Notes: generated from the sequence alone by a model not told the origin. A stretch of DNA of 50,144 nt from Euryarchaeota archaeon UBA19 (GCA_002502175.1 DAPQ01000058.1:1-50144); one strand, 5' to 3'. Numbered from the stretch's first letter, positions 40,689 through 49,823 are shown. Numbers and translations are program-made.

Positions 40689-40765
40689 GGGCGCTTAGCT
40701 CAGCTTGGAAGAGCACCTGGTTTGCAACCAGGGGGCCGGGGGTTCAAATCCCCCAGCGTCCACCA
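40689..40765 (+). tRNA. tRNA-Ala (anticodon TGC), CCA encoded
   Basis: Acceptor GGGCGCT/AGCGTCC with the G3:U70 Ala identity pair. Anticodon stem CCTGG/CCAGG, loop TTTGCAA, T-arm GGGGG-TTCAAAT-CCCCC, discriminator A, then CCA. Confidence 0.9.
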
Positions 40766-40795: not shown

Positions 40796-41617
40796 TCAAT
40801 CCATTTTTCTCGCTTTCTTAACAAGAGCGACTATTTCCTTTCTGGCTTCATCGCTGTCAATTGCCTGATTCTCAAATGCAATTCTAATTGGCCTAGATCC
40901 GTCGTTAGTCATTGCAGACATTTCAAATCCATATCTATCTATACCGGTCATTGTAGCCTCAGAGGTATCGATGGCTTTACTCATCTTCTGACAAATAATA
41001 ATCATGGCATCCTCGTGATCATCATTCATGTGTTCTATGATGTCGTCAGAATAAGCATTCAAAGGATCCGGTTCAGCCCCACCCCAATCATCACCTTCAA
41101 TCCAAGACATTCTTCCAAAGCCCCCGATATATCGAACAGATGTGACCGACAAACGGAAGAAATGAAAATCACCAAAATCAGCGTAGAACTTTGCGCTTTC
41201 GTGTCTTGATATGAATATCTCTTTCATGCGTGAACGTTCTTCATCAGGCACCTTGGAACAATTCCCAATTAGAGTTACTCTGCCCAAGGCTAATGGGTTA
41301 TCGTCACCTCCTTCAGCTATCAACAGTGAAGACTTAGAATCCCTCATCAGATTTTTTGTATGTTCGGCCAATCCACTGATCAGAAAGATTGGGTCTCCGT
41401 CATCCAATGCATATGTGACAAAAGATCCGTATGGAAAACCACCTTCATCTGCTGAGATAGTGCATAACGTGGCGGTTCCTATTCTTTCAGCCAATGTCCT
41501 AGCCTGTTCAGCATGAGTTGGAGTAGCAACATTAGCGTCATACAACAACTCCTGCCGCTGCGGAGAGCTCCCTTTGGGTAGTTGATGTCTCGGCGTCGAA
41601 TTATTTTTCTCAGACAC
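40796..41617 (-). CDS. HugZ-like protein: PNPOx-like split-barrel domain plus DUF2470 (putative haem utilisation / haem oxygenase-like)
   Basis: 273 aa. The GTG start shares one base with the flavodoxin stop (TAGTG). It has LCTISADEGGFPYGSFVTYALDD.GDPIFLISGLAEHTKNL, LGRVTLIG and a C-terminal IIEHMNDDHEDAM (DUF2470-like). Confidence 0.65.
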   Translation of the reverse strand: MSEKNNSTPRHQLPKGSSPQRQELLYDANVATPTHAEQARTLAERIGTATLCTISADEGGFPYGSFVTYALDDGDPIFLISGLAEHTKNLMRDSKSSLLIAEGGDDNPLALGRVTLIGNCSKVPDEERSRMKEIFISRHESAKFYADFGDFHFFRLSVTSVRYIGGFGRMSWIEGDDWGGAEPDPLNAYSDDIIEHMNDDHEDAMIIICQKMSKAIDTSEATMTGIDRYGFEMSAMTNDGSRPIRIAFENQAIDSDEARKEIVALVKKARKMD

Positions 41618-42093
41618 TATGCTTCCCCCAGAATCATCTGACTGAATTTCTGCAATGTTTCCTCAATCCAATCTTCACATTCAGTAGTATCTTCATAGTC
41701 TACATCACAATCTATGCGTTCGTTAATACGATTACCACCCTTTTCCTCTAACACTCTATCCCATTCTTTTCCTGATTCACAGAAAAATTCGTAACTAGTA
41801 TCTCCCAAGGCTAGAACCGCGAAATTAACGCCATCCATACTATTGTCATCACAATCACATGATGCCTGATACAGGTCTTCTGCATTCATCGGCTGTTCGC
41901 CCTCTCCCCAAGTGCTACAACAAATCAGAAGGAATTCTGAATCCGATAACTCATCTACGGAAATATCATCCATATCCATTACCCTAGACTTCAAATTCAT
42001 TTTTTTGGCTAATATGCCCGCATCATCTGCTAACGCCTCCGCATTACCGGTTTCACTTCCATAAACTATCAATATCTCTTTTTCTTCACTCAT
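41617..42093 (-). CDS. Flavodoxin
   Basis: 158 aa. ILIVYGSETGNAEALA (FMN phosphate loop), STWGEGE and ALGDTSYEFFC. ATGA overlap with the upstream ABC ATPase. Confidence 0.8.
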   Translation of the reverse strand: MSEEKEILIVYGSETGNAEALADDAGILAKKMNLKSRVMDMDDISVDELSDSEFLLICCSTWGEGEQPMNAEDLYQASCDCDDNSMDGVNFAVLALGDTSYEFFCESGKEWDRVLEEKGGNRINERIDCDVDYEDTTECEDWIEETLQKFSQMILGEA

Positions 42094-42905
42094 AATATCA
42101 CTGTCCTATTTGTTTTTTTTTCGTTAATTTCGTCTTTAATAATTATACGAATGTAATTTGGATGCATGTTCACTATTTCTGAAGTCACATTGAAAACTTC
42201 AGCAATATTCTTTGTGGTTAGAACTTCTTGAGGCGTTCCATCTGCAATAATTCTTCCCTCATGTAAAAGGAGTATTCTATCTGAGAACCGAGCAGCTATG
42301 TTGATGTCATGTATTGCAATTAACGCGGACTTAGGAGATTCTGGAACAGAAATTAATTCCTTGATTCGCTTCATTATTTCAATCTGATTCTTCAGGTCTA
42401 GATCACTAGTAGGTTCATCGAAAAGGTATACTGCTGGGTCTTGTGCTACAGCTTTGGCTATTATTACTCGCTGTCTTTCACCGCCTGATAATTGATCAAA
42501 TCTCCTGAATGCGAATTCTTCAAGATTTAGATACCTCAATGTTTTACTGACTTTTTCTCTATCTTCGCCTGCTATCATCCATTGGATGTGTGGTCGGCGA
42601 CCCAGTAATACGACGTCGAATACATCCATCGAGAAGTTACTACGTATCGATTGTGGTACGTATGAGATATGTTTTGAGAGTTCTATTAAATCCACATCCG
42701 AGAGTTCCTCGCCAAATATTGAAATTTCGCCGGAATCGGGTTTTAAAATTCTATTAAGACATTTCAAAAGAGTGGATTTACCGGCGCCATTTATTCCAAT
42801 AATTGATACTAATTCATTTTCTTTAAGATTGAGATTGAGGTCTTTTAGAACGTGATTATTGCCCCAACTAAAATTCAAATTAGTAACGTCAATAATTTCC
42901 TTCAT
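42090..42905 (-). CDS. ABC transporter ATP-binding protein, FecE/FepC/HmuV (iron-chelate/haem/cobalamin) type
   Basis: 271 aa. Walker A GINGAGKST, signature LSGGERQR, Walker B VYLFDEPTSDLD, and H-loop IHD. Confidence 0.9.
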   Translation of the reverse strand: MKEIIDVTNLNFSWGNNHVLKDLNLNLKENELVSIIGINGAGKSTLLKCLNRILKPDSGEISIFGEELSDVDLIELSKHISYVPQSIRSNFSMDVFDVVLLGRRPHIQWMIAGEDREKVSKTLRYLNLEEFAFRRFDQLSGGERQRVIIAKAVAQDPAVYLFDEPTSDLDLKNQIEIMKRIKELISVPESPKSALIAIHDINIAARFSDRILLLHEGRIIADGTPQEVLTTKNIAEVFNVTSEIVNMHPNYIRIIIKDEINEKKTNRTVIL

Positions 42906-43945
42906 TTTTTACCCCCCCTATTTGCTAATAACAAATACATGAAGAAAGGCCCACCAATTATTGAGAGCATTATTCCCACTGGAATTACTATCGGAGCAAA
43001 CAAAGTCCTCCCCAATGTATCTGCAAAAACCATCAAAAAAGCTCCAAAAATCGCTGAACAAGGGATCAGTTTCCTGTAGTCATTACCGATAATTAGACGA
43101 CTCATGTGAGGCGCGGCGAGCCCCACGAATCCAATTAGTCCAGTAAATGCAATTACTACTGATGTCATGAATGCCGAGAGAATCAGCATATTTCTCCTGG
43201 TTTCTGCCGGATTAACTCCGGTCGAAATAGCAAATTCATCGCCCCCAATTGATAATGCATTCAGATCCCATGACCACTTCATTGCTGTTGGCATAAGTCC
43301 CAAGACCGCAATTGATATTGCAAGAACTTGAATCAAATCAGGCCTTGAAAGACTTCCAAAAGACCAATGGGCCAATTGGGATAATTGAGCATCCGTTGCA
43401 AAATATTGCATGGTAGAAACAACCGCTCCTGAAATGAATGTAATAGCTATGCCAACTAAGATGTATGATTCAGCCGAAATCGATCTCAAACTTCCTAATT
43501 GAATAATAATCGCGACTACAATTAATGAGAAAAAGAAAGCATTGGCAACTATTGCAAGATTCGAATAGGGTAGTACCGAAACCCCGAGAACTATAGCAAA
43601 TGCTGCTCCGAGTGCAGCTCCTGATGCAACGCCCAGAGTTAATGGCGAAACGAGAGGGTTTCCGAGACAACCCTGCATCAATGAACCTGCAACAGCCAAA
43701 GCCGCTCCGCCAATTATGGCCATCAATATTCTAGGAAATCTCAATTTCCAAATAATATCCGATTGTAATTCAGTCGCTGCCTCTAATCCCAAGATTATAT
43801 TGATGGTAGACATCATATCCAAATTAGATGATGAACCCTGGCCCATAGCAAAGAGGGATAAAAAGACGGTTATAATTCCGAGAATCAAGACCATAAGAAA
43901 TTGAGTCTTTCCATTCTCAATGTGCTTTTCAGATATAGAGTCCAT
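42902..43945 (-). CDS. FecCD/BtuC-family ABC permease
   Basis: ATG at 43945 (MDSISEKH...) lies 1 nt after the upstream stop. It has RFPRILMAIIGGAALAVAGSLMQ, GIMLSIIGGPFFMYLL and about 9-10 TM segments. The track's upstream extension overlaps the binding-protein gene. Confidence 0.85.
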   Translation of the reverse strand: MDSISEKHIENGKTQFLMVLILGIITVFLSLFAMGQGSSSNLDMMSTINIILGLEAATELQSDIIWKLRFPRILMAIIGGAALAVAGSLMQGCLGNPLVSPLTLGVASGAALGAAFAIVLGVSVLPYSNLAIVANAFFFSLIVVAIIIQLGSLRSISAESYILVGIAITFISGAVVSTMQYFATDAQLSQLAHWSFGSLSRPDLIQVLAISIAVLGLMPTAMKWSWDLNALSIGGDEFAISTGVNPAETRRNMLILSAFMTSVVIAFTGLIGFVGLAAPHMSRLIIGNDYRKLIPCSAIFGAFLMVFADTLGRTLFAPIVIPVGIMLSIIGGPFFMYLLLANRGGKK

Positions 43946-43946
43946 A

Positions 43947-45053
43947 TTACACCCTTTCAAATTCACAAACAAATTTCCCAACCCTGTCAATGTCGTGATA
44001 TTTGATGAAATAATTGTCCAAATAATATTCCGTATCGATATCCTCGAATAAACTCGGATGTAGTAATTTTGCAAGAGTGGGTAGCCCATGAATCATCATA
44101 GGTCCGGCGAACTCTCCAGACATGATCACCATACTACCGGATTGCACCGCTTTGACTTCATCAAATCCCGGCCTTTCAGCTATAAAATTCATGTGAGTCT
44201 GGCAATCATTTCCTTCATCAAAAGCATTGAATCCTATGTCAAAGGTTATCCCATCGAACATAAGAACATCCGGATTGCCATCAAGGATTGCCTCCATATC
44301 GACGTGTGTGGTATGTCCCGGCAGATCGGCAAAAATATTCTTACCACCCGCCTTTTGTATCAAATCTGTCCATTGCGAAGTACCGGTAAGTACTACCGGG
44401 TCACGTGTTAGCGAAGCATGATGTTCCATTACCACCGTTGGCCTGGAGGTTTCTGAAATCCGACCAATCCTATCTTCAACTAGGGATTCAATTTCATCAA
44501 ATTCCACGAATAGATCATCTGCCTCCTTCTCCTTGGAGAATAGTTTAGCAATCACATTAATTTCATACCTCAAATTGTCGTACTTGTAGAAATCTAGAGC
44601 TAGAACCCTGATTCCAACCGGCTCTAGTTTTTCTCGGATAGCGTTGGTATCCACCATACCATTTGTTGCGAATACAATGTATACTTCTGGTCGAGCATCT
44701 AACAAAGCCTCAAAATCAATTTCTGAATGTGCTGACTGTTGTATAATTGGCGTGTCAATAAATTCGGGCCAAAGTGAACTATCGGAAAAATCCCCAGATA
44801 TTCCTACTATCACATCTGATTCTACATCAAGCATCCTTATGACTGTAGCAGCATAAGTATTCGTTATTGCCACCCTAGTAGGAGATTCCGCGAAGCTATG
44901 TTCGACTCCATTGGAATCAATGACAATAATCGCTCCCCTATCGGCGTCGTTTTCTTCTTGAACAGAATATTGGTAAACGCCAAATGAACAAAATAGTATT
45001 AACGCCGCTTGGAACACGGCTAATTTTGATATATTCATAGGCACCAAATCCAT
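43947..45053 (-). CDS. Class III (Peripla_BP_2, FhuD/BtuF/HmuT-like) substrate-binding protein
   Basis: 368 aa. Signal anchor, P.RVA....YAATVIRMLD, DFEALLDARPEVYIV and DVLMFDG. First gene of the transporter. Confidence 0.75.
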   Translation of the reverse strand: MDLVPMNISKLAVFQAALILFCSFGVYQYSVQEENDADRGAIIVIDSNGVEHSFAESPTRVAITNTYAATVIRMLDVESDVIVGISGDFSDSSLWPEFIDTPIIQQSAHSEIDFEALLDARPEVYIVFATNGMVDTNAIREKLEPVGIRVLALDFYKYDNLRYEINVIAKLFSKEKEADDLFVEFDEIESLVEDRIGRISETSRPTVVMEHHASLTRDPVVLTGTSQWTDLIQKAGGKNIFADLPGHTTHVDMEAILDGNPDVLMFDGITFDIGFNAFDEGNDCQTHMNFIAERPGFDEVKAVQSGSMVIMSGEFAGPMMIHGLPTLAKLLHPSLFEDIDTEYYLDNYFIKYHDIDRVGKFVCEFERV

Positions 45054-45070: not shown

Positions 45071-47470
45071 TTATTCAATATATTTTCTGGTTCTCAAACC
45101 AAAAATCATTAACCCCACCAAACAAATCGTTGAAATCAATAAATATTCTGAGGAACCCCAGTCTTCAGATTCTTCAACTGTGATAAAAATGGAATCTGAA
45201 TATTCTGATATTTTGCCATAAACCATACTATTTACTCTGATACGATTTTGTCCAATATCCAAGTCTTCCAAAGTTATTTCATTTTCTTGACCCTTGTATA
45301 CCTCTAAGGTATTTCCAGATTCATCTTCGACAATTACTGAGTACCAATCAGAATCTTCTATTGGTGTCCAATTTATTGTAATTGAATTACCTTCTTCTAT
45401 TGTTCTTTCCGGAGAATATACAATTGGCTTTGGAGGAATAAAATTAACGCTGAGAACTAAACTTGCACCATCAATCATGTAACCATCCATTACAGCTCTT
45501 AACACATATGTGTATTCGCCATCCTCTCTATTTAGTACTTCAAAAGAGACCTCTTCTCCCTCGAAAATTATCTCTCCATTTTCTACTAATTGATAGTTGG
45601 ACGAACCTGCATAATCCCCCCACTCAATTAGATAATCATTCGTATTAATTTCAGCTTCTTGGGTAATGAACTGAGGAGTTGTTGGAGCATCATAAGACAA
45701 TAATTCGTACTCGACCTTATCTGAATGGGATCCGGATAAACGATCTACTATCTTCACCCAATTCCTAACTGTCTCATTATACCATAATTCCCATGAAATA
45801 ACCTGATCATTATTGTCTGTAATTTTGATATATTTTGTGGAGAAATTACCGGCAGGAGTTGCTATCTGCACATCATCCTCTATAGTTACAATATTGTAAG
45901 TATCAGCGTACCCGTCAGGATGACCCGGGACCCCTATCACATTTGTTCGATTGAAGTGCAGACTCAAATCCGATGAAGCTACGAGAGGATTAACGGAGTC
46001 ACCATTATTATCTGTAAAGTCCCACCCTAATGTGCCTTCTTGGAAGTAGGATGAGGAAGTAGGGTCGTCGACCCAGTAGGTGTGAACATTGAGAAGATTT
46101 TCACTATCAACCCATCTAAACGACCTTTCTTCTGGGAGCTGATAATCCCCACTAAGTCTGAGTAAGAAAGAGTCCCTTTCCACCCCAAAAGCATCTTCAA
46201 TTAATTCAGACCCAATCATGGTCATTGTGACATTTCTGATTGTTCCACTTGGTGCATAAGATACTCGATAATCCCAAGTCATGCCCACATTCCATTTATC
46301 ATCATTCGATTGAGAGGGTAGGAAAATTATTCTTAGTGAGTTAATATTTTCAGTAGATCCGTTTGAATTATTGGCGACTACATTGAAATCAATCATTCCT
46401 GCATCCTCAGGTTCGAAAGTTAGTGATTTTGAGTAGCCTCTGTAAATCAGATTCTCTTCATAAATATCCCCTGCATAAACAGAAAAATAATCAGTAAACT
46501 CAGAACCTTCCCATCTCAGTTCTAAGGGAGATAAAGGCATAGTCTGCATAGGGGTGGAAAAGCTAACATTTCCTGGTAGATTGACCTCGATTTCAAGAGA
46601 TTTATTCAACCAGCCTTCGCCAATAGTGATTATCTCTTGAATCGGTTCAGAAACTTGATTCCCAGATTGGTGAAATGTCAATGTCTGTTGACTTCCAACC
46701 TCTAAGCTCTGGAGCAGATAGAAACCATCGGAATTAGTTAGAGTGGCTTTTGCCCCATTGCTTACTGTAATCCCTTCAATTGGAGCGCCCACAACATTGG
46801 TAATGAAACCATATCGACTGTTCATTCCGTGATTGAAATCAAAATCATTCAAGTGTGGATATTTATCCCCCGAATTAGATCCTCTTTCCAATTTGAAATG
46901 CACATATTGGGTTGAGTGGTCAATGTCGCCATAGTAAGCACGCATTGAGTAATATTCACCCGTTTTGTAAGGGCCAAACTCGGTACGGCCGTCATCTAAG
47001 GAATGCGTTTCACTTGTTTGTACCAATTCAACCGACGTCATTGGCGAACTTTGTGCCATTTCTCCATTTTCATCAAATACCTCTGCCGTTATCCAGTTAT
47101 GTCCGACATACCAGTCAAGTTCGATATCGCCAGAAAAGAATATGGTGCGATATGCCACGGTGTGCCCATCATTCATGAAATAGGCTCGAACTATATGTTC
47201 TCCTGGAGTAATTCCTGAGTACTCATAGTAACCGTTTTGAGACCAACCAGAAGCCATCGAATCGACTTTAATTGAAGTAGTATTTGCCAACTGTCCGTCT
47301 GCTGTATAGATGTGACCAGAAAGTGTGTAAGTCACATCTTCATGGTTATCTGCAGATGCGATATTCAGAGGTACAGTTATTGATAGCATGAATATCGAAA
47401 ATAAAAATATTCCCGAACTCATATCGGAGAGGGCAATTCGGTAGTTCTCCATACTGTCGGACATTTTCAT
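45071..47470 (-). CDS. Large exported surface protein: CarboxypepD_reg-like and FN3-like beta-sandwich domains, C-terminal TM anchor
   Basis: 799 aa. Signal peptide ...LNIASA. GFITNVVGAPIEGITVSNGAKATLTNSDGFYLLQSLEVG is a CarboxypepD_reg-like motif. Two C-terminal FN3-like modules (YLIEWGDY..., ITINWTPIEDSDWYSVIV). TM segment LLISTICLVGLMIFGL. Confidence 0.55.
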   Translation of the reverse strand: MKMSDSMENYRIALSDMSSGIFLFSIFMLSITVPLNIASADNHEDVTYTLSGHIYTADGQLANTTSIKVDSMASGWSQNGYYEYSGITPGEHIVRAYFMNDGHTVAYRTIFFSGDIELDWYVGHNWITAEVFDENGEMAQSSPMTSVELVQTSETHSLDDGRTEFGPYKTGEYYSMRAYYGDIDHSTQYVHFKLERGSNSGDKYPHLNDFDFNHGMNSRYGFITNVVGAPIEGITVSNGAKATLTNSDGFYLLQSLEVGSQQTLTFHQSGNQVSEPIQEIITIGEGWLNKSLEIEVNLPGNVSFSTPMQTMPLSPLELRWEGSEFTDYFSVYAGDIYEENLIYRGYSKSLTFEPEDAGMIDFNVVANNSNGSTENINSLRIIFLPSQSNDDKWNVGMTWDYRVSYAPSGTIRNVTMTMIGSELIEDAFGVERDSFLLRLSGDYQLPEERSFRWVDSENLLNVHTYWVDDPTSSSYFQEGTLGWDFTDNNGDSVNPLVASSDLSLHFNRTNVIGVPGHPDGYADTYNIVTIEDDVQIATPAGNFSTKYIKITDNNDQVISWELWYNETVRNWVKIVDRLSGSHSDKVEYELLSYDAPTTPQFITQEAEINTNDYLIEWGDYAGSSNYQLVENGEIIFEGEEVSFEVLNREDGEYTYVLRAVMDGYMIDGASLVLSVNFIPPKPIVYSPERTIEEGNSITINWTPIEDSDWYSVIVEDESGNTLEVYKGQENEITLEDLDIGQNRIRVNSMVYGKISEYSDSIFITVEESEDWGSSEYLLISTICLVGLMIFGLRTRKYIE

Positions 47471-47500: not shown

Positions 47501-47516
47501 TTTAGGGAGCCCTAAA
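47501..47516 (+). promoter_or_regulatory. Perfect palindrome TTTAGGG-AG-CCCTAAA immediately upstream of the M28-ZIP gene, in the 49-bp divergent intergenic region
   Basis: Seen directly. It ends 4 nt before the ATG at 47520 and follows an AT-rich TATA-like TATTTCAAAA (47491-47500). It contains GGGAG (SD-like). Confidence 0.35.
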
Positions 47517-47519
47517 CTT

Positions 47520-49823
47520 ATGAAGAATAGCCTCACAACATACAACATGGACTTGTCATCAGACCGAGTACTTACTCTGGTTGGTGTTGTTTCCGCCATT
47601 GTTTTGTTATCTAGTTTGACGTATGAGTTTCTTCTTCATGATGAGGAAGAGGTGGCCTTTGTAATAGATGATTCAAGATTGATGGAGGATATCAATAGTA
47701 TAGCATCATTTGGACCGAGGGTTGCTGGTTCAATGGAAGAGTCGCTTGCTTCGGACTACATCAGTCAGCGTTTCACGGAAATAGGCTTAGAGAATGTCAA
47801 AGTTGAGGAATTTCAAGTGACAGGAGCATGGTTTGTTGACGCGGAACCAGAAGATCATCAAATTTTGATGCATGCACAATTGGAGCAAGGCGTTCAAAAT
47901 GCCCCAGGATTGCCAGATGGTACGGCTGGCGCGGCGCGGGTCGCAATTGACGAAACAGGGGACTTGAATCACGTTGAGAGTTTCACTTACATGGGATATT
48001 CGGGTTCAATTCACAAGCACGATAACATGCTCACCTTCATCGGTAACGGATCTGGTGAGGATTTTGAAAACATTGGCGATATGACCGACCTTGCTGTAAT
48101 GATTAACTATGACAATAGCCGTAGTCTCGCTGATATCTACAAAGATGCCATTGATAGAAACGCAGGCGTTGTAATGATCTACACCGAGGGAGTCGAAACA
48201 CCGCCCTTCCGCTCCGTAACGGTCCAAGAAAACGGTGCAACTGTTCCGTTTCCTGATGCCTATGAGGGTCAATACGCTGATGCATTGATTCCTTACATCT
48301 ACATCGCTGAAAGTGTTGCTTTGAAGTTCCATGATTACATCGAACAGGCTGCAAGCGATCCCACATTGTATGCCTCTCTGGACGGATTTTGGGAAGGAAA
48401 CAACGTGGGGACTAGAAGCGTAAAAGTCGTGACGGGGGAAATTCCTGGCCACGGGGAAGGGGAGATATTGGTTGGCGCGCATCATGATTCCGTATACATC
48501 AGTCCTGGCGCCGTGGACAACGCCGTCGGTGTCGCCCAACTTCTCGAGGTCGCCACTCAATTGAGTGAACTAAATCTTGAGTCAACCGTCACCTTCGCCA
48601 CATGGGGCGGTGAAGAGCTAGGATTGTTGGGGAGTCAAGCCTATATCCAATCGTATAAGGAAGAAGTTGATGACCTCGACTTGTACATTAACCTTGACTC
48701 AACTAACCTCAATCCCTCAATAGGACTAGGAACGCTTGGCATTGAAACCTCAGAGCAACATCTTATCGAGTCAATTTCCAAGATTCAACGTACGGTGTTG
48801 GGACATGAAGCGTGGGAGGATTATGACACCAACCTTCAACTGAACAATCTCGATGGAAACAGCGACCACCGTTCGTTCAATCAATACGGGACGCCTACAA
48901 TCGGGTTTTATGGGTGGGAATACGAACAATACCACCGTACAACCGATGTTCCAGATGTGGTTCATCAGGAAGGATTAGCGTTGACAGTGGAAATCGTTCT
49001 CCAAATCCTTGTTGCTCAGGGAGGTCATGAGAGCATTGAGGAACCACTCGTCCAAATTTCAGGATTGGAAGGCGAATCTGAATCTTGGGTCTTTCCATTT
49101 GTTCTCGCATTGCTCGCAGGCCTTGCTACTGGAATTGGTGGTCTGATCGTGTTTCTTGTAAAAGAAATCAGTCAGGAAATGATGGCATTTTTACTTGCTA
49201 TGGCTGCTGGCGTGATGCTCTTGGTTTCGGTGCTTGATTTGTGGTTCGGCCAAGCTATGGAGAATGGTTTCCTCCCCATCACGCTCTCGTTTGGTGTGGG
49301 CTTAGGCATCGTTTATGCCGTGAGCATGTACACCAACAAGGGCGAGGATCTTTCCGCCATGTCTAAGGAGCGGAAATTGTACAAATCTGGCATTCTTACA
49401 GCTATCGCCCTTGCAATTCACAATTTCCCCGAAGGTTTGGCCATGGGAGTGGCTGTTCTCGAATCAGCTCAGTATGGTATCGTGCTCATGGCGGCAATCG
49501 CGCTTCACAACATCCCAGAAGGCATTGCGGTGGCTGCACCAATACAAGCAGGCGGAGGTGGTCGTCTGAAAGCGACGCTTATCGCAATGGCTACTGGCTT
49601 TACAGAACCACTTGGGGCCTTATTCGCCTTGTTAATTCTTGGACCGATTTTAACACCATTCATGGTGGGCTGCTCACTTGCGTTTGTCGGAGGAATCATG
49701 ACAGTGGTGGCATACAACGAGTTGATTCCTCAAGCGATGGAACAAAACCGCCCGAAACATCTGCTCGTTGGTGCAATCTTTGGAGCTGCTGTAATGCAGC
49801 TAAGCCTACTTCTTCTTGGATGA
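47520..49823 (+). CDS. Fusion protein: N-terminal signal anchor + M28-family zinc aminopeptidase domain + C-terminal ZIP (ZupT-like) metal transporter
   Basis: 767 aa. M28 motifs: VGAHHDSVYISPGAVDNAVG, WGGEELGLLGS, YINLDS, SDHRSF. ZIP motifs: AIHNFPEGLAMGVAV and ALHNIPEGIAVAAP, within about 8 TM segments. Confidence 0.8.
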   Translation: MKNSLTTYNMDLSSDRVLTLVGVVSAIVLLSSLTYEFLLHDEEEVAFVIDDSRLMEDINSIASFGPRVAGSMEESLASDYISQRFTEIGLENVKVEEFQVTGAWFVDAEPEDHQILMHAQLEQGVQNAPGLPDGTAGAARVAIDETGDLNHVESFTYMGYSGSIHKHDNMLTFIGNGSGEDFENIGDMTDLAVMINYDNSRSLADIYKDAIDRNAGVVMIYTEGVETPPFRSVTVQENGATVPFPDAYEGQYADALIPYIYIAESVALKFHDYIEQAASDPTLYASLDGFWEGNNVGTRSVKVVTGEIPGHGEGEILVGAHHDSVYISPGAVDNAVGVAQLLEVATQLSELNLESTVTFATWGGEELGLLGSQAYIQSYKEEVDDLDLYINLDSTNLNPSIGLGTLGIETSEQHLIESISKIQRTVLGHEAWEDYDTNLQLNNLDGNSDHRSFNQYGTPTIGFYGWEYEQYHRTTDVPDVVHQEGLALTVEIVLQILVAQGGHESIEEPLVQISGLEGESESWVFPFVLALLAGLATGIGGLIVFLVKEISQEMMAFLLAMAAGVMLLVSVLDLWFGQAMENGFLPITLSFGVGLGIVYAVSMYTNKGEDLSAMSKERKLYKSGILTAIALAIHNFPEGLAMGVAVLESAQYGIVLMAAIALHNIPEGIAVAAPIQAGGGGRLKATLIAMATGFTEPLGALFALLILGPILTPFMVGCSLAFVGGIMTVVAYNELIPQAMEQNRPKHLLVGAIFGAAVMQLSLLLLG

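Follow-up and report, generated by a model that had tools for sequence, protein, structure and literature searches.

Bacterial haem acquisition systems such as HmuTUV, ChuTUV and PhuTUV combine a type II ATP-binding cassette (ABC) importer with a cytoplasmic haem-degrading enzyme, either HugZ, ChuZ or HutZ or the anaerobic ChuW/HutW, and are under iron control. A further branch of the HugZ superfamily comprises the HOZ-type proteins, in which the split barrel precedes the DUF2470 (DRI) domain; its members bind haem and, given ascorbate, break it down in vitro, and bacterial genes for HOZ-like proteins adjoin iron-transporter genes, including those of the FecCD family (Grosjean et al. 2024, J Biol Chem, PMC11602992). 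We found such an arrangement in a Myxococcota locus, with the gene order substrate-binding protein (SBP), permease, ATPase, HOZ. Here, we describe a six-gene operon contained within a 50,144-nt stretch of DNA from Euryarchaeota archaeon UBA19 (GCA_002502175.1 DAPQ01000058.1:1-50144, hereafter the window; all positions are counted from its first letter). The host is a planktonic marine archaeon belonging to the Poseidoniales (Marine Group II, MGII), and the operon encodes a surface protein, an importer of the FecBCD/BtuFCD/HmuTUV class, a flavodoxin and a HOZ-type protein. We consider it very likely that the operon serves the uptake of an iron compound under iron control, and put at roughly 55% the probability of this compound being haem, or an iron tetrapyrrole close to it, that is degraded by the HOZ-type protein.

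The locus shares with the described prokaryotic HOZ neighbourhoods (PMC11602992) and with the structurally characterised MSMEG_6519 and AtHOZ1 (6M09/6M0A) the split-barrel-then-DRI order, the haem-site histidines and the adjoining FecCD transporter. It differs from them in its archaeal host (the text of PMC11602992 does not mention archaea), in the flavodoxin gene coupled directly upstream of the HOZ gene (the literature covered names no physiological reductant for the family), in the large anchored surface protein heading the operon and in the presence of an operator of the TroR type. When compared with HmuTUV-type systems, the binding protein lies outside the HmuT/ShuT/PhuT/IsdE groups, the domain order of the enzyme is the reverse of HugZ, the enzyme type is one reported to lack the canonical axial His, and there is no outer-membrane receptor. 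The YiuA proteins of Yersinia pestis and Y. ruckeri (6B2X, 9HRJ, 9HRP, 9HT5, 9IF3) are closest to the binding protein in both structure and sequence, with an identity of ~20% and with different residues at the ligand site. The TroR regulon of Haloferax volcanii shares the TTTAGG-N4-CCTAAA operator form upstream of iron-uptake genes and the presence of DtxR-family regulators; it belongs to another archaeal class, and the site studied here, known from sequence, lies 28-43 nt from the start codon as opposed to ~100 nt for the TroR motif. The general design is already known from bacteria. Novel aspects are the host, an archaeon, the insertion of a flavodoxin, the surface protein at the head of the operon, the operator of TroR type, a Tyr/His site on a YiuA-like scaffold, and the connection with a haem-synthesis cluster of horizontally patchy occurrence. 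Our literature search, whose coverage was incomplete and does not prove absence, returned no archaeal haem uptake or degradation system and no description of the MGII operon.

The six genes are all located on the minus strand, in the order surface protein (799 aa, 45071-47470), membrane-anchored SBP of cluster A-II (43947-45053; Pfam Peripla_BP_2, 3.6e-23), FecCD-family permease of a type II ABC importer (42902-43945; FecCD, 2.9e-78), ABC ATPase (42090-42905; ABC_tran, 1.6e-33), short-chain flavodoxin (158 aa, 41617-42093; Flavodoxin_1, 4e-30) and HOZ-type split-barrel protein (273 aa, 40796-41617; CREG_beta-barrel/PNPOx_N plus DUF2470, 1.5e-19). Junctions range from -4 to 17 nt, the longest being the 17-nt gap between the surface-protein and binding-protein genes. 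The permease gene starts with the ATG at 43945, 1 nt past the TAA of the binding-protein gene; a start at 44089, suggested by mechanical open reading frame (ORF) prediction, was rejected as an upstream extension of the true ORF. Both the ATPase and flavodoxin genes start within ATGA overlaps with the preceding gene, and the HOZ gene uses a GTG start inside a TAGTG overlap with the flavodoxin gene. An earlier note on this DNA had described the last five genes as a packed set, and its coordinates, overlaps and domain calls were all reproduced, Pfam supporting each of the five proteins. Its assignment of the transporter class likewise holds, given the combination of Peripla_BP_2, FecCD and ABC ATPase in one operon. 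The operon does, however, begin one gene earlier than proposed there: we assign the surface-protein gene to it because the six-gene order recurs in ~15 MGII/MGIII genomes, with proteins 34-94% identical. This recurring order also shows that the arrangement is not due to chance.

Contigs of three metatranscriptome studies match stretches of each of the six genes (identity of at least 95%), and single RNA-library contigs span the HOZ/flavodoxin (41325-41898) and flavodoxin/ATPase (41904-42285) junctions. These contigs, which carry no information on strand, ends, expression level or iron response, are compatible with co-transcription in the sea, DNA carry-over being possible. One of them (X14, depth ~9) contains a one-base insertion in a minus-strand A run at 42105-42113, close to the 3' end of the ATPase gene and just upstream of the flavodoxin start, which may reflect sequencing error, strain variation or slippage.

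The protein encoded by the last gene consists of a CREG_beta-barrel/PNPOx_N domain (residues 34-178) followed by DUF2470 (residues 190-265). Its closest solved relative is MSMEG_6519 (5BNC, 8.6e-45 over residues 28-270), with further matches to AtHOZ1 (6M09, 5.7e-33) and to poplar PtHOZ1 (9BL1, 1.7e-30). The HugZ equivalog model TIGR04109 scored 73 bits versus a 240-bit cut-off and matched the DUF2470 part alone. HugZ proper, which has DUF2470 first and an axial His in a C-terminal loop, could be ruled out on the basis of both this score and the reversed domain order. The earlier description of a HugZ-like PNPOx+DUF2470 protein was thus right as to the domains and not as to HugZ itself; by its sequence, the protein is classed as a HOZ-type (C-extension) member of the HugZ superfamily. 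Across 20 aligned sequences, including a divergent paralogue, H86, R113 and the motif H196-M-N-x-D-H201 are invariant. H86 aligns with AtHOZ1 H135, HugZ H136 and PtHOZ1B H90, the His located at the haem propionates, while H196 and H201 align with PtHOZ1B H201 and H206, the DRI His pair that overlays the extra haem bound by the ChuZ DRI domain. The comparison with known haem-binding residues found the haem-site histidines described in published work to be invariant. The earlier note had also counted lack of an axial haem ligand, together with FMN binding as in an ordinary PNPOx-like enzyme, as evidence against a haem function. This proved not to be diagnostic, because C-extension enzymes are without the canonical axial His (PMC13715372, 2026), yet HOZ-type members degrade haem in vitro (PMC11602992). 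We propose that the protein is a cytoplasmic haem-binding and probably haem-degrading enzyme. In three MGII genomes, the HOZ slot is filled by a paralogue of 34-37% identity (L025:6902-7762, L026:6926-7792, L027:1664-2542), which has a 20-aa insertion in the barrel and keeps H86, R113 and HMNDDH. ORFs of 428-431 aa at three loci (L002-L004) had the appearance of flavodoxin-HOZ fusions, and were rejected as a stop codon intervenes (a TAA at 6989-6991 in L002).

The occurrence of the module was determined across 121 Poseidoniales species genomes, each at least 80% complete. A FecCD permease scored above cut-off in 12 of the 121 and DUF2470 in 14; in all 12 FecCD-positive genomes DUF2470 was found on the same contig, and the two extra DUF2470 genes are located at contig ends. 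The module is accessory and counted as present in 14 of these genomes, about a tenth of Poseidoniales species; gain and loss of HOZ go along with gain and loss of the transporter. In the UBA19 genome, the permease of the operon is the sole FecCD gene.

A perfect 16-bp palindrome, TTTAGGGAGCCCTAAA (47501-47516, of the form TTTAGG-N4-CCTAAA), is a candidate iron operator of the DtxR/TroR type. It precedes the first start codon of the operon by 43 nt and, by 4 nt, the ATG of a divergent gene on the plus strand (47520-49823), and is common to both. The latter gene lies outside the operon, is predicted to belong to the same regulon and encodes, in a single ORF, a fusion of an M28 peptidase and a ZIP metal transporter (Pfam). 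According to a preprint (bioRxiv 10.1101/2023.08.16.553580), TroR is the DtxR-family master iron regulator of Hfx. volcanii, with a chromatin immunoprecipitation sequencing motif of TTTAGGC-NNN-CCTAAAANAN (TTTAGGC-NNN-CCTAAA). The 1.39-Mb UBA19 genome contains 5 exact TTTAGG-N4-CCTAAA sites, where 0.10 are expected. The other four are all located on contig C48 (L045:3360-10605), a second iron island, where they front genes for two transferrin-like binding proteins (transferrin/phosphonate-binding-like, of 356 and 698 aa), for a low-iron protein resembling FEA1/ISIP2a and for an ABC ATPase paired with a BPD permease. A site with one mismatch precedes a 4Fe-4S ferredoxin gene. Of 11 loci, MGIII included, 6 keep the operator in front of the operon; its distance to the surface-protein gene is 39-84 nt in L002, L010 (MGIII), L012 and L026, and L006 has it with one mismatch. 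Where the M28-ZIP gene lies downstream of HOZ, it keeps its own copy of the operator (L008:8232, L012:10179). Two complete genes for DtxR-family regulators are present in the UBA19 genome. With this operator form at iron genes and a DtxR-family regulator encoded, the sites would constitute a DtxR/TroR-type regulon. Because the TroR-form operator is conserved and its other genomic sites are found at iron genes, the operon is very probably part of an iron-starvation regulon, to which a DtxR-family protein would bind as repressor. An ATPase-permease pair of the type encoded on C48 was also observed directly after HOZ in L004, L005, L025 and L027.

A profile of the binding protein searched against the PDB retrieved YiuA first (9HRJ 4e-24, 6B2X 3e-21), followed by 4MO9 and MolA, with IsdE at 8e-7 and the best BtuF chain (5YSC) at an E-value of 0.25. 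The AlphaFold2 model of the binding protein (pLDDT 82) gave Y. ruckeri YiuA (9IF3, E 4e-23, TM-score 0.76) as the top Foldseek match. By sequence and fold rank, the protein falls outside the known haem SBPs (IsdE, PhuT/ShuT/HmuT, BhuT), and it also falls outside the BtuF cobalamin binders. Placement by hidden Markov models, as the earlier note had suggested, does not classify it, all models scoring below cut-off. The ligand site of YiuA consists of the basic triad R64/R165/R223 plus H331/Y334 (PMC5683015). HMMER alignments place Y67 (Y or F), Y156, H212, S312 and F315 at these respective positions. Hence, the YiuA-type basic triad is absent despite YiuA being the closest fold, and inspection of the pocket for Tyr or His found Y67, Y156 and H212 in place of the three arginines. 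Y156 and H212 are invariant in MGII binding proteins, with position 67 being Y or F, and further invariant His and Met residues are numerous. In known haem-binding SBPs, the haem iron is ligated by residues of these kinds, namely Tyr, His and Met. Clustering with siderophore or BtuF binders had been put forward as grounds for abandoning a haem ligand; the outcome is divided, since the nearest protein, YiuA, binds a ferric catecholate and its basic triad is not conserved. In two MGII genomes (L004:3286-4560, L005:3284-4552), the binding protein carries an additional C-terminal acidic linker and transmembrane helix of ~60 aa, and would be anchored at both ends.

The MGII binding proteins form a compact clade: an exhaustive search yielded one relative of 41% identity, with the rest at 35% or less, and the best 120 rows of the homologue listing contained MGII/III relatives alone, under generic names. 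The 41% relative, encoded on another contig, follows a 784-aa CarboxypepD_reg-like surface protein, and its neighbour genes carry HTH_10 and HVO_2525_N regulator domains. Outside MGII, the best full-length relative (29%) is the SBP at the start of an operon that continues with FecCD permease, ATPase, radical SAM enzyme and flavodoxin (L048:8001-12856 and L049:784-5639). ChuW/HutW is the top model for the radical SAM enzyme (227 bits versus a 400-bit cut-off, with almost the entire model aligned) and BilS the top match for the flavodoxin; Y156 and an HH motif are common to the MGII binding protein and this ChuW-linked relative. The operon resembles an anaerobic version of the MGII module. Another relative heads an SBP-FecCD-ATPase-NirJ1-NirJ2 operon (L053:7001-12095), in which NirJ2 scored above its cut-off and NirJ1 reached 623 bits versus a 650-bit cut-off; this couples an ABC importer to AhbC/AhbD-like tetrapyrrole radical SAM enzymes. 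The remaining relatives are found behind a DtxR gene (P0132), behind a TonB-dependent receptor without a haem enzyme, or among uninformative neighbours. One binding-protein subfamily would thus pair with three unrelated tetrapyrrole enzymes, which is the best argument available for a haem-like ligand and rests on 2 of 7 contexts. Taken with the iron operator and the strict co-occurrence of HOZ and transporter, these tetrapyrrole neighbours support the proposal of a haem/iron acquisition module as first made, with alternative substrates kept open.

The flavodoxin best matches the CysJ FMN (flavin mononucleotide) domain among NCBIfam models, and shares 47% identity with the FMN domain of a diflavin reductase of CysJ/CPR type encoded in the same genome. 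The T/SxTGN loop (here GxETGN) and the STWGEG and LGDT motifs are invariant in the flavodoxin alignment; these motifs bind FMN in flavodoxins, and by this pattern the protein is assigned to the short-chain flavodoxins. It may act as the electron donor of the HOZ-type protein, as an iron-sparing ferredoxin substitute, or both. The FMN domain of cytochrome P450 reductase (CPR) donates electrons to canonical eukaryotic haem oxygenase, and a flavodoxin-HOZ pairing is therefore chemically sensible. Elsewhere in the UBA19 genome, we observed the diflavin reductase itself, with flavodoxin, FAD and NAD domains (L038:5201-7066), as well as a 720-aa protein that combines a 2Fe-2S domain with two flavodoxin domains and is located beside a CCG-domain protein (L037:4049-6211). 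Both are paralogues of the flavodoxin of the operon and possible upstream electron sources.

The surface protein has an N-terminal signal/anchor helix and a C-terminal transmembrane anchor, and its gene is syntenic at every locus reaching that far. The AlphaFold2 model (pLDDT 75) is all-beta, consisting of a chain of beta-sandwich domains, of which the central region (residues ~390-600) is strongly conserved. Foldseek comparison with the PDB returned generic Ig/FN3 strings alone (TM-score 0.1-0.19), a protein-atlas search with residues 385-605 yielded leads alone (all <0.85), and Pfam gave a sub-threshold CarboxypepD_reg match alone. The protein holds the slot that a TonB-dependent receptor takes in one bacterial relative, and by this analogy it is a candidate cell-surface capture protein or receptor.

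A number of these observations weigh against haem as the ligand. None of the transporter components reaches an NCBIfam equivalog cut-off. For the ATPase, the haem ABC ATPase PRK13548 ranks first among the NCBIfam models (225 bits versus a 261-bit cut-off), with the corrinoid and FecE models scoring nearly equal, and so there is no discrimination; for the permease, the BtuC, FhuB and FecD models are all under cut-off, BtuC scoring best. The closest relative of the binding protein in fold and sequence was solved with Fe and a catecholate fragment. Known haem binders are far down the Foldseek list (PhuT at rank 32, BhuT at rank 45), and the IsdE model gives 35 bits versus a 299-bit cut-off. Tetrapyrrole enzymes occur in no more than 2 of the 7 examined non-MGII contexts, and no ligand-binding domain was recognised in the surface protein by Pfam, Foldseek or the atlas search. 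The flavodoxin gene is missing at two loci (L010 and L027); flavodoxin is the classic iron-sparing stand-in for ferredoxin, and could be a plain replacement of this kind here. Furthermore, the UBA19 genome encodes a complete haem pathway of its own, and across Poseidoniales the module is associated with haem synthesis, which also fits a role in the endogenous haem/iron economy (see below).

The alternative that survives best, which we nevertheless regard as unlikely, is that the importer takes up a ferric siderophore or other ferric chelate in the manner of YiuA, with the flavodoxin, possibly assisted by the split-barrel protein, freeing the iron reductively in the cytoplasm. YiuA structures contain Fe with DHB-L-Arg-L-Ser, Fe-NTA (iron nitrilotriacetate) or iron, the iron-box regulon fits a chelate equally well, and one relative of the binding protein (P0132) is found behind a DtxR gene, another behind a TonB-dependent receptor with no haem enzyme. 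Split-barrel flavin reductases can also serve as ferric reductases. All three arginines of the YiuA triad, by which PMC5683015 defines catecholate/chelate binding, are, however, replaced in the MGII proteins (R64 by Y/F, R165 by Y, R223 by H), the split-barrel protein belongs to the haem-binding HOZ clade with the haem-site histidines kept, and enzymes of the ChuW and NirJ kinds accompany relatives of the binding protein.

The question of haem synthesis bears on a second alternative. A preprint (10.1101/2021.01.11.426183) put forward haem auxotrophy as the prevailing state of MGII and MGIII, and the presence of ALAD in 21 of the 121 Poseidoniales genomes agrees with this for most MGII; haem prototrophy is patchy across the order. 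The UBA19 genome encodes a complete bacterial-type, protoporphyrin-dependent pathway from HemA to ferrochelatase. A cluster on contig C14 (L035:3848-12487) contains HemA, a HemC-HemD fusion (561 aa), HemB, HemL, HemE, HemF and a HemY-like oxidase, with ferrochelatase on contig C7 (L036). Haem auxotrophy was therefore rejected as the reason for the module in UBA19. As this genome makes haem, imported haem would serve as a source of iron and not to supply the cofactor. Among ALAD-positive genomes the module is over-represented (9/14 versus 12/107, Fisher p = 3e-5, without phylogenetic correction). In UBA89 (L002), the ferrochelatase gene ends 39 nt from the HOZ stop and is followed by genes for HemY-like oxidase, HemF, HemE, HemL, HemB and HemCD, and in UBA182 (L008) and UBA558 (L012/G059) the haem-synthesis cluster is ~5 kb from the module. 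An S15 peptidase gene that flanks the hem cluster of UBA19 is located directly after HOZ in six other loci.

It could accordingly be argued that HOZ acts on the haem of the cell itself, either recycling iron under starvation or serving as a chaperone or sensor tied to ferrochelatase, while the importer carries another form of iron. Both the physical proximity and the enrichment would be explained in this way, and the HOZ family does include non-enzymatic haem sensors such as GBP. This appears improbable, since HOZ tracks the transporter in 12 of 12 genomes and haem synthesis in 9 of 14, with five module-bearing genomes (84-94% complete) having no ALAD match. In addition, HOZ is translationally coupled to the transporter genes, with the hem genes on the opposite strand, and no iron box was found at the hem cluster. 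A BtuFCD-like corrinoid importer, with flavodoxin and HOZ processing cobalamin, is very improbable. In its favour, the operon is the only FecCD system in the genome, B12-binding-domain proteins are present while CobS was not found in the 80%-complete genome, and BtuC is the top-scoring permease model, albeit under cut-off. Against it, ~90% of sampled Poseidoniales are without FecCD, so that any general B12 need would be met otherwise, the BtuF match has an E-value of 0.25, the operator and the genes of its regulon point to iron, and no HOZ-family member has been described with corrinoids in the literature covered.

In the mechanism that we infer for uptake of haem or a close iron tetrapyrrole, a DtxR-family repressor would occupy the palindrome over the promoter region when iron is plentiful, shutting off both the six-gene operon and the divergent M28-ZIP gene. 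Under iron scarcity, the anchored surface protein and the membrane-anchored binding protein would gather the ligand outside the cell, and the FecCD permease and ATPase would bring it in. In the cytoplasm, the HOZ-type protein would bind the ligand, open the ring oxidatively and free the iron. The co-translated flavodoxin would supply the electrons, and a reductase of the cell, for instance the diflavin enzyme of CysJ/CPR type, may re-reduce it. More doubtful, though possible, is the full proposal that this is the first archaeal system for haem capture, import and degradation, with three traits for which the bacterial systems offer no described parallel: a dedicated flavodoxin as the physiological HOZ reductant, a new family of anchored surface haem receptors in an S-layer-bounded cell, and Tyr/His haem ligation in a YiuA-like scaffold. 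On the downstream side, the cluster is bounded by a tRNA-Ala gene (40689-40765, plus strand).

MGII, which are uncultured, belong to the most abundant heterotrophic organisms in surface seawater. The module cannot be the haem source of MGII auxotrophs, being absent from ~90% of genomes, and for the same reason the auxotrophic majority must get haem by another route. In vitro assays of the HOZ family have used ascorbate (PMC11602992), and the co-translated flavodoxin is a candidate for a physiological electron donor. If the proposed ligand is correct, a haem-based iron route in approximately one tenth of species would bear on niche partitioning within the group and on the marine haem and iron cycles.

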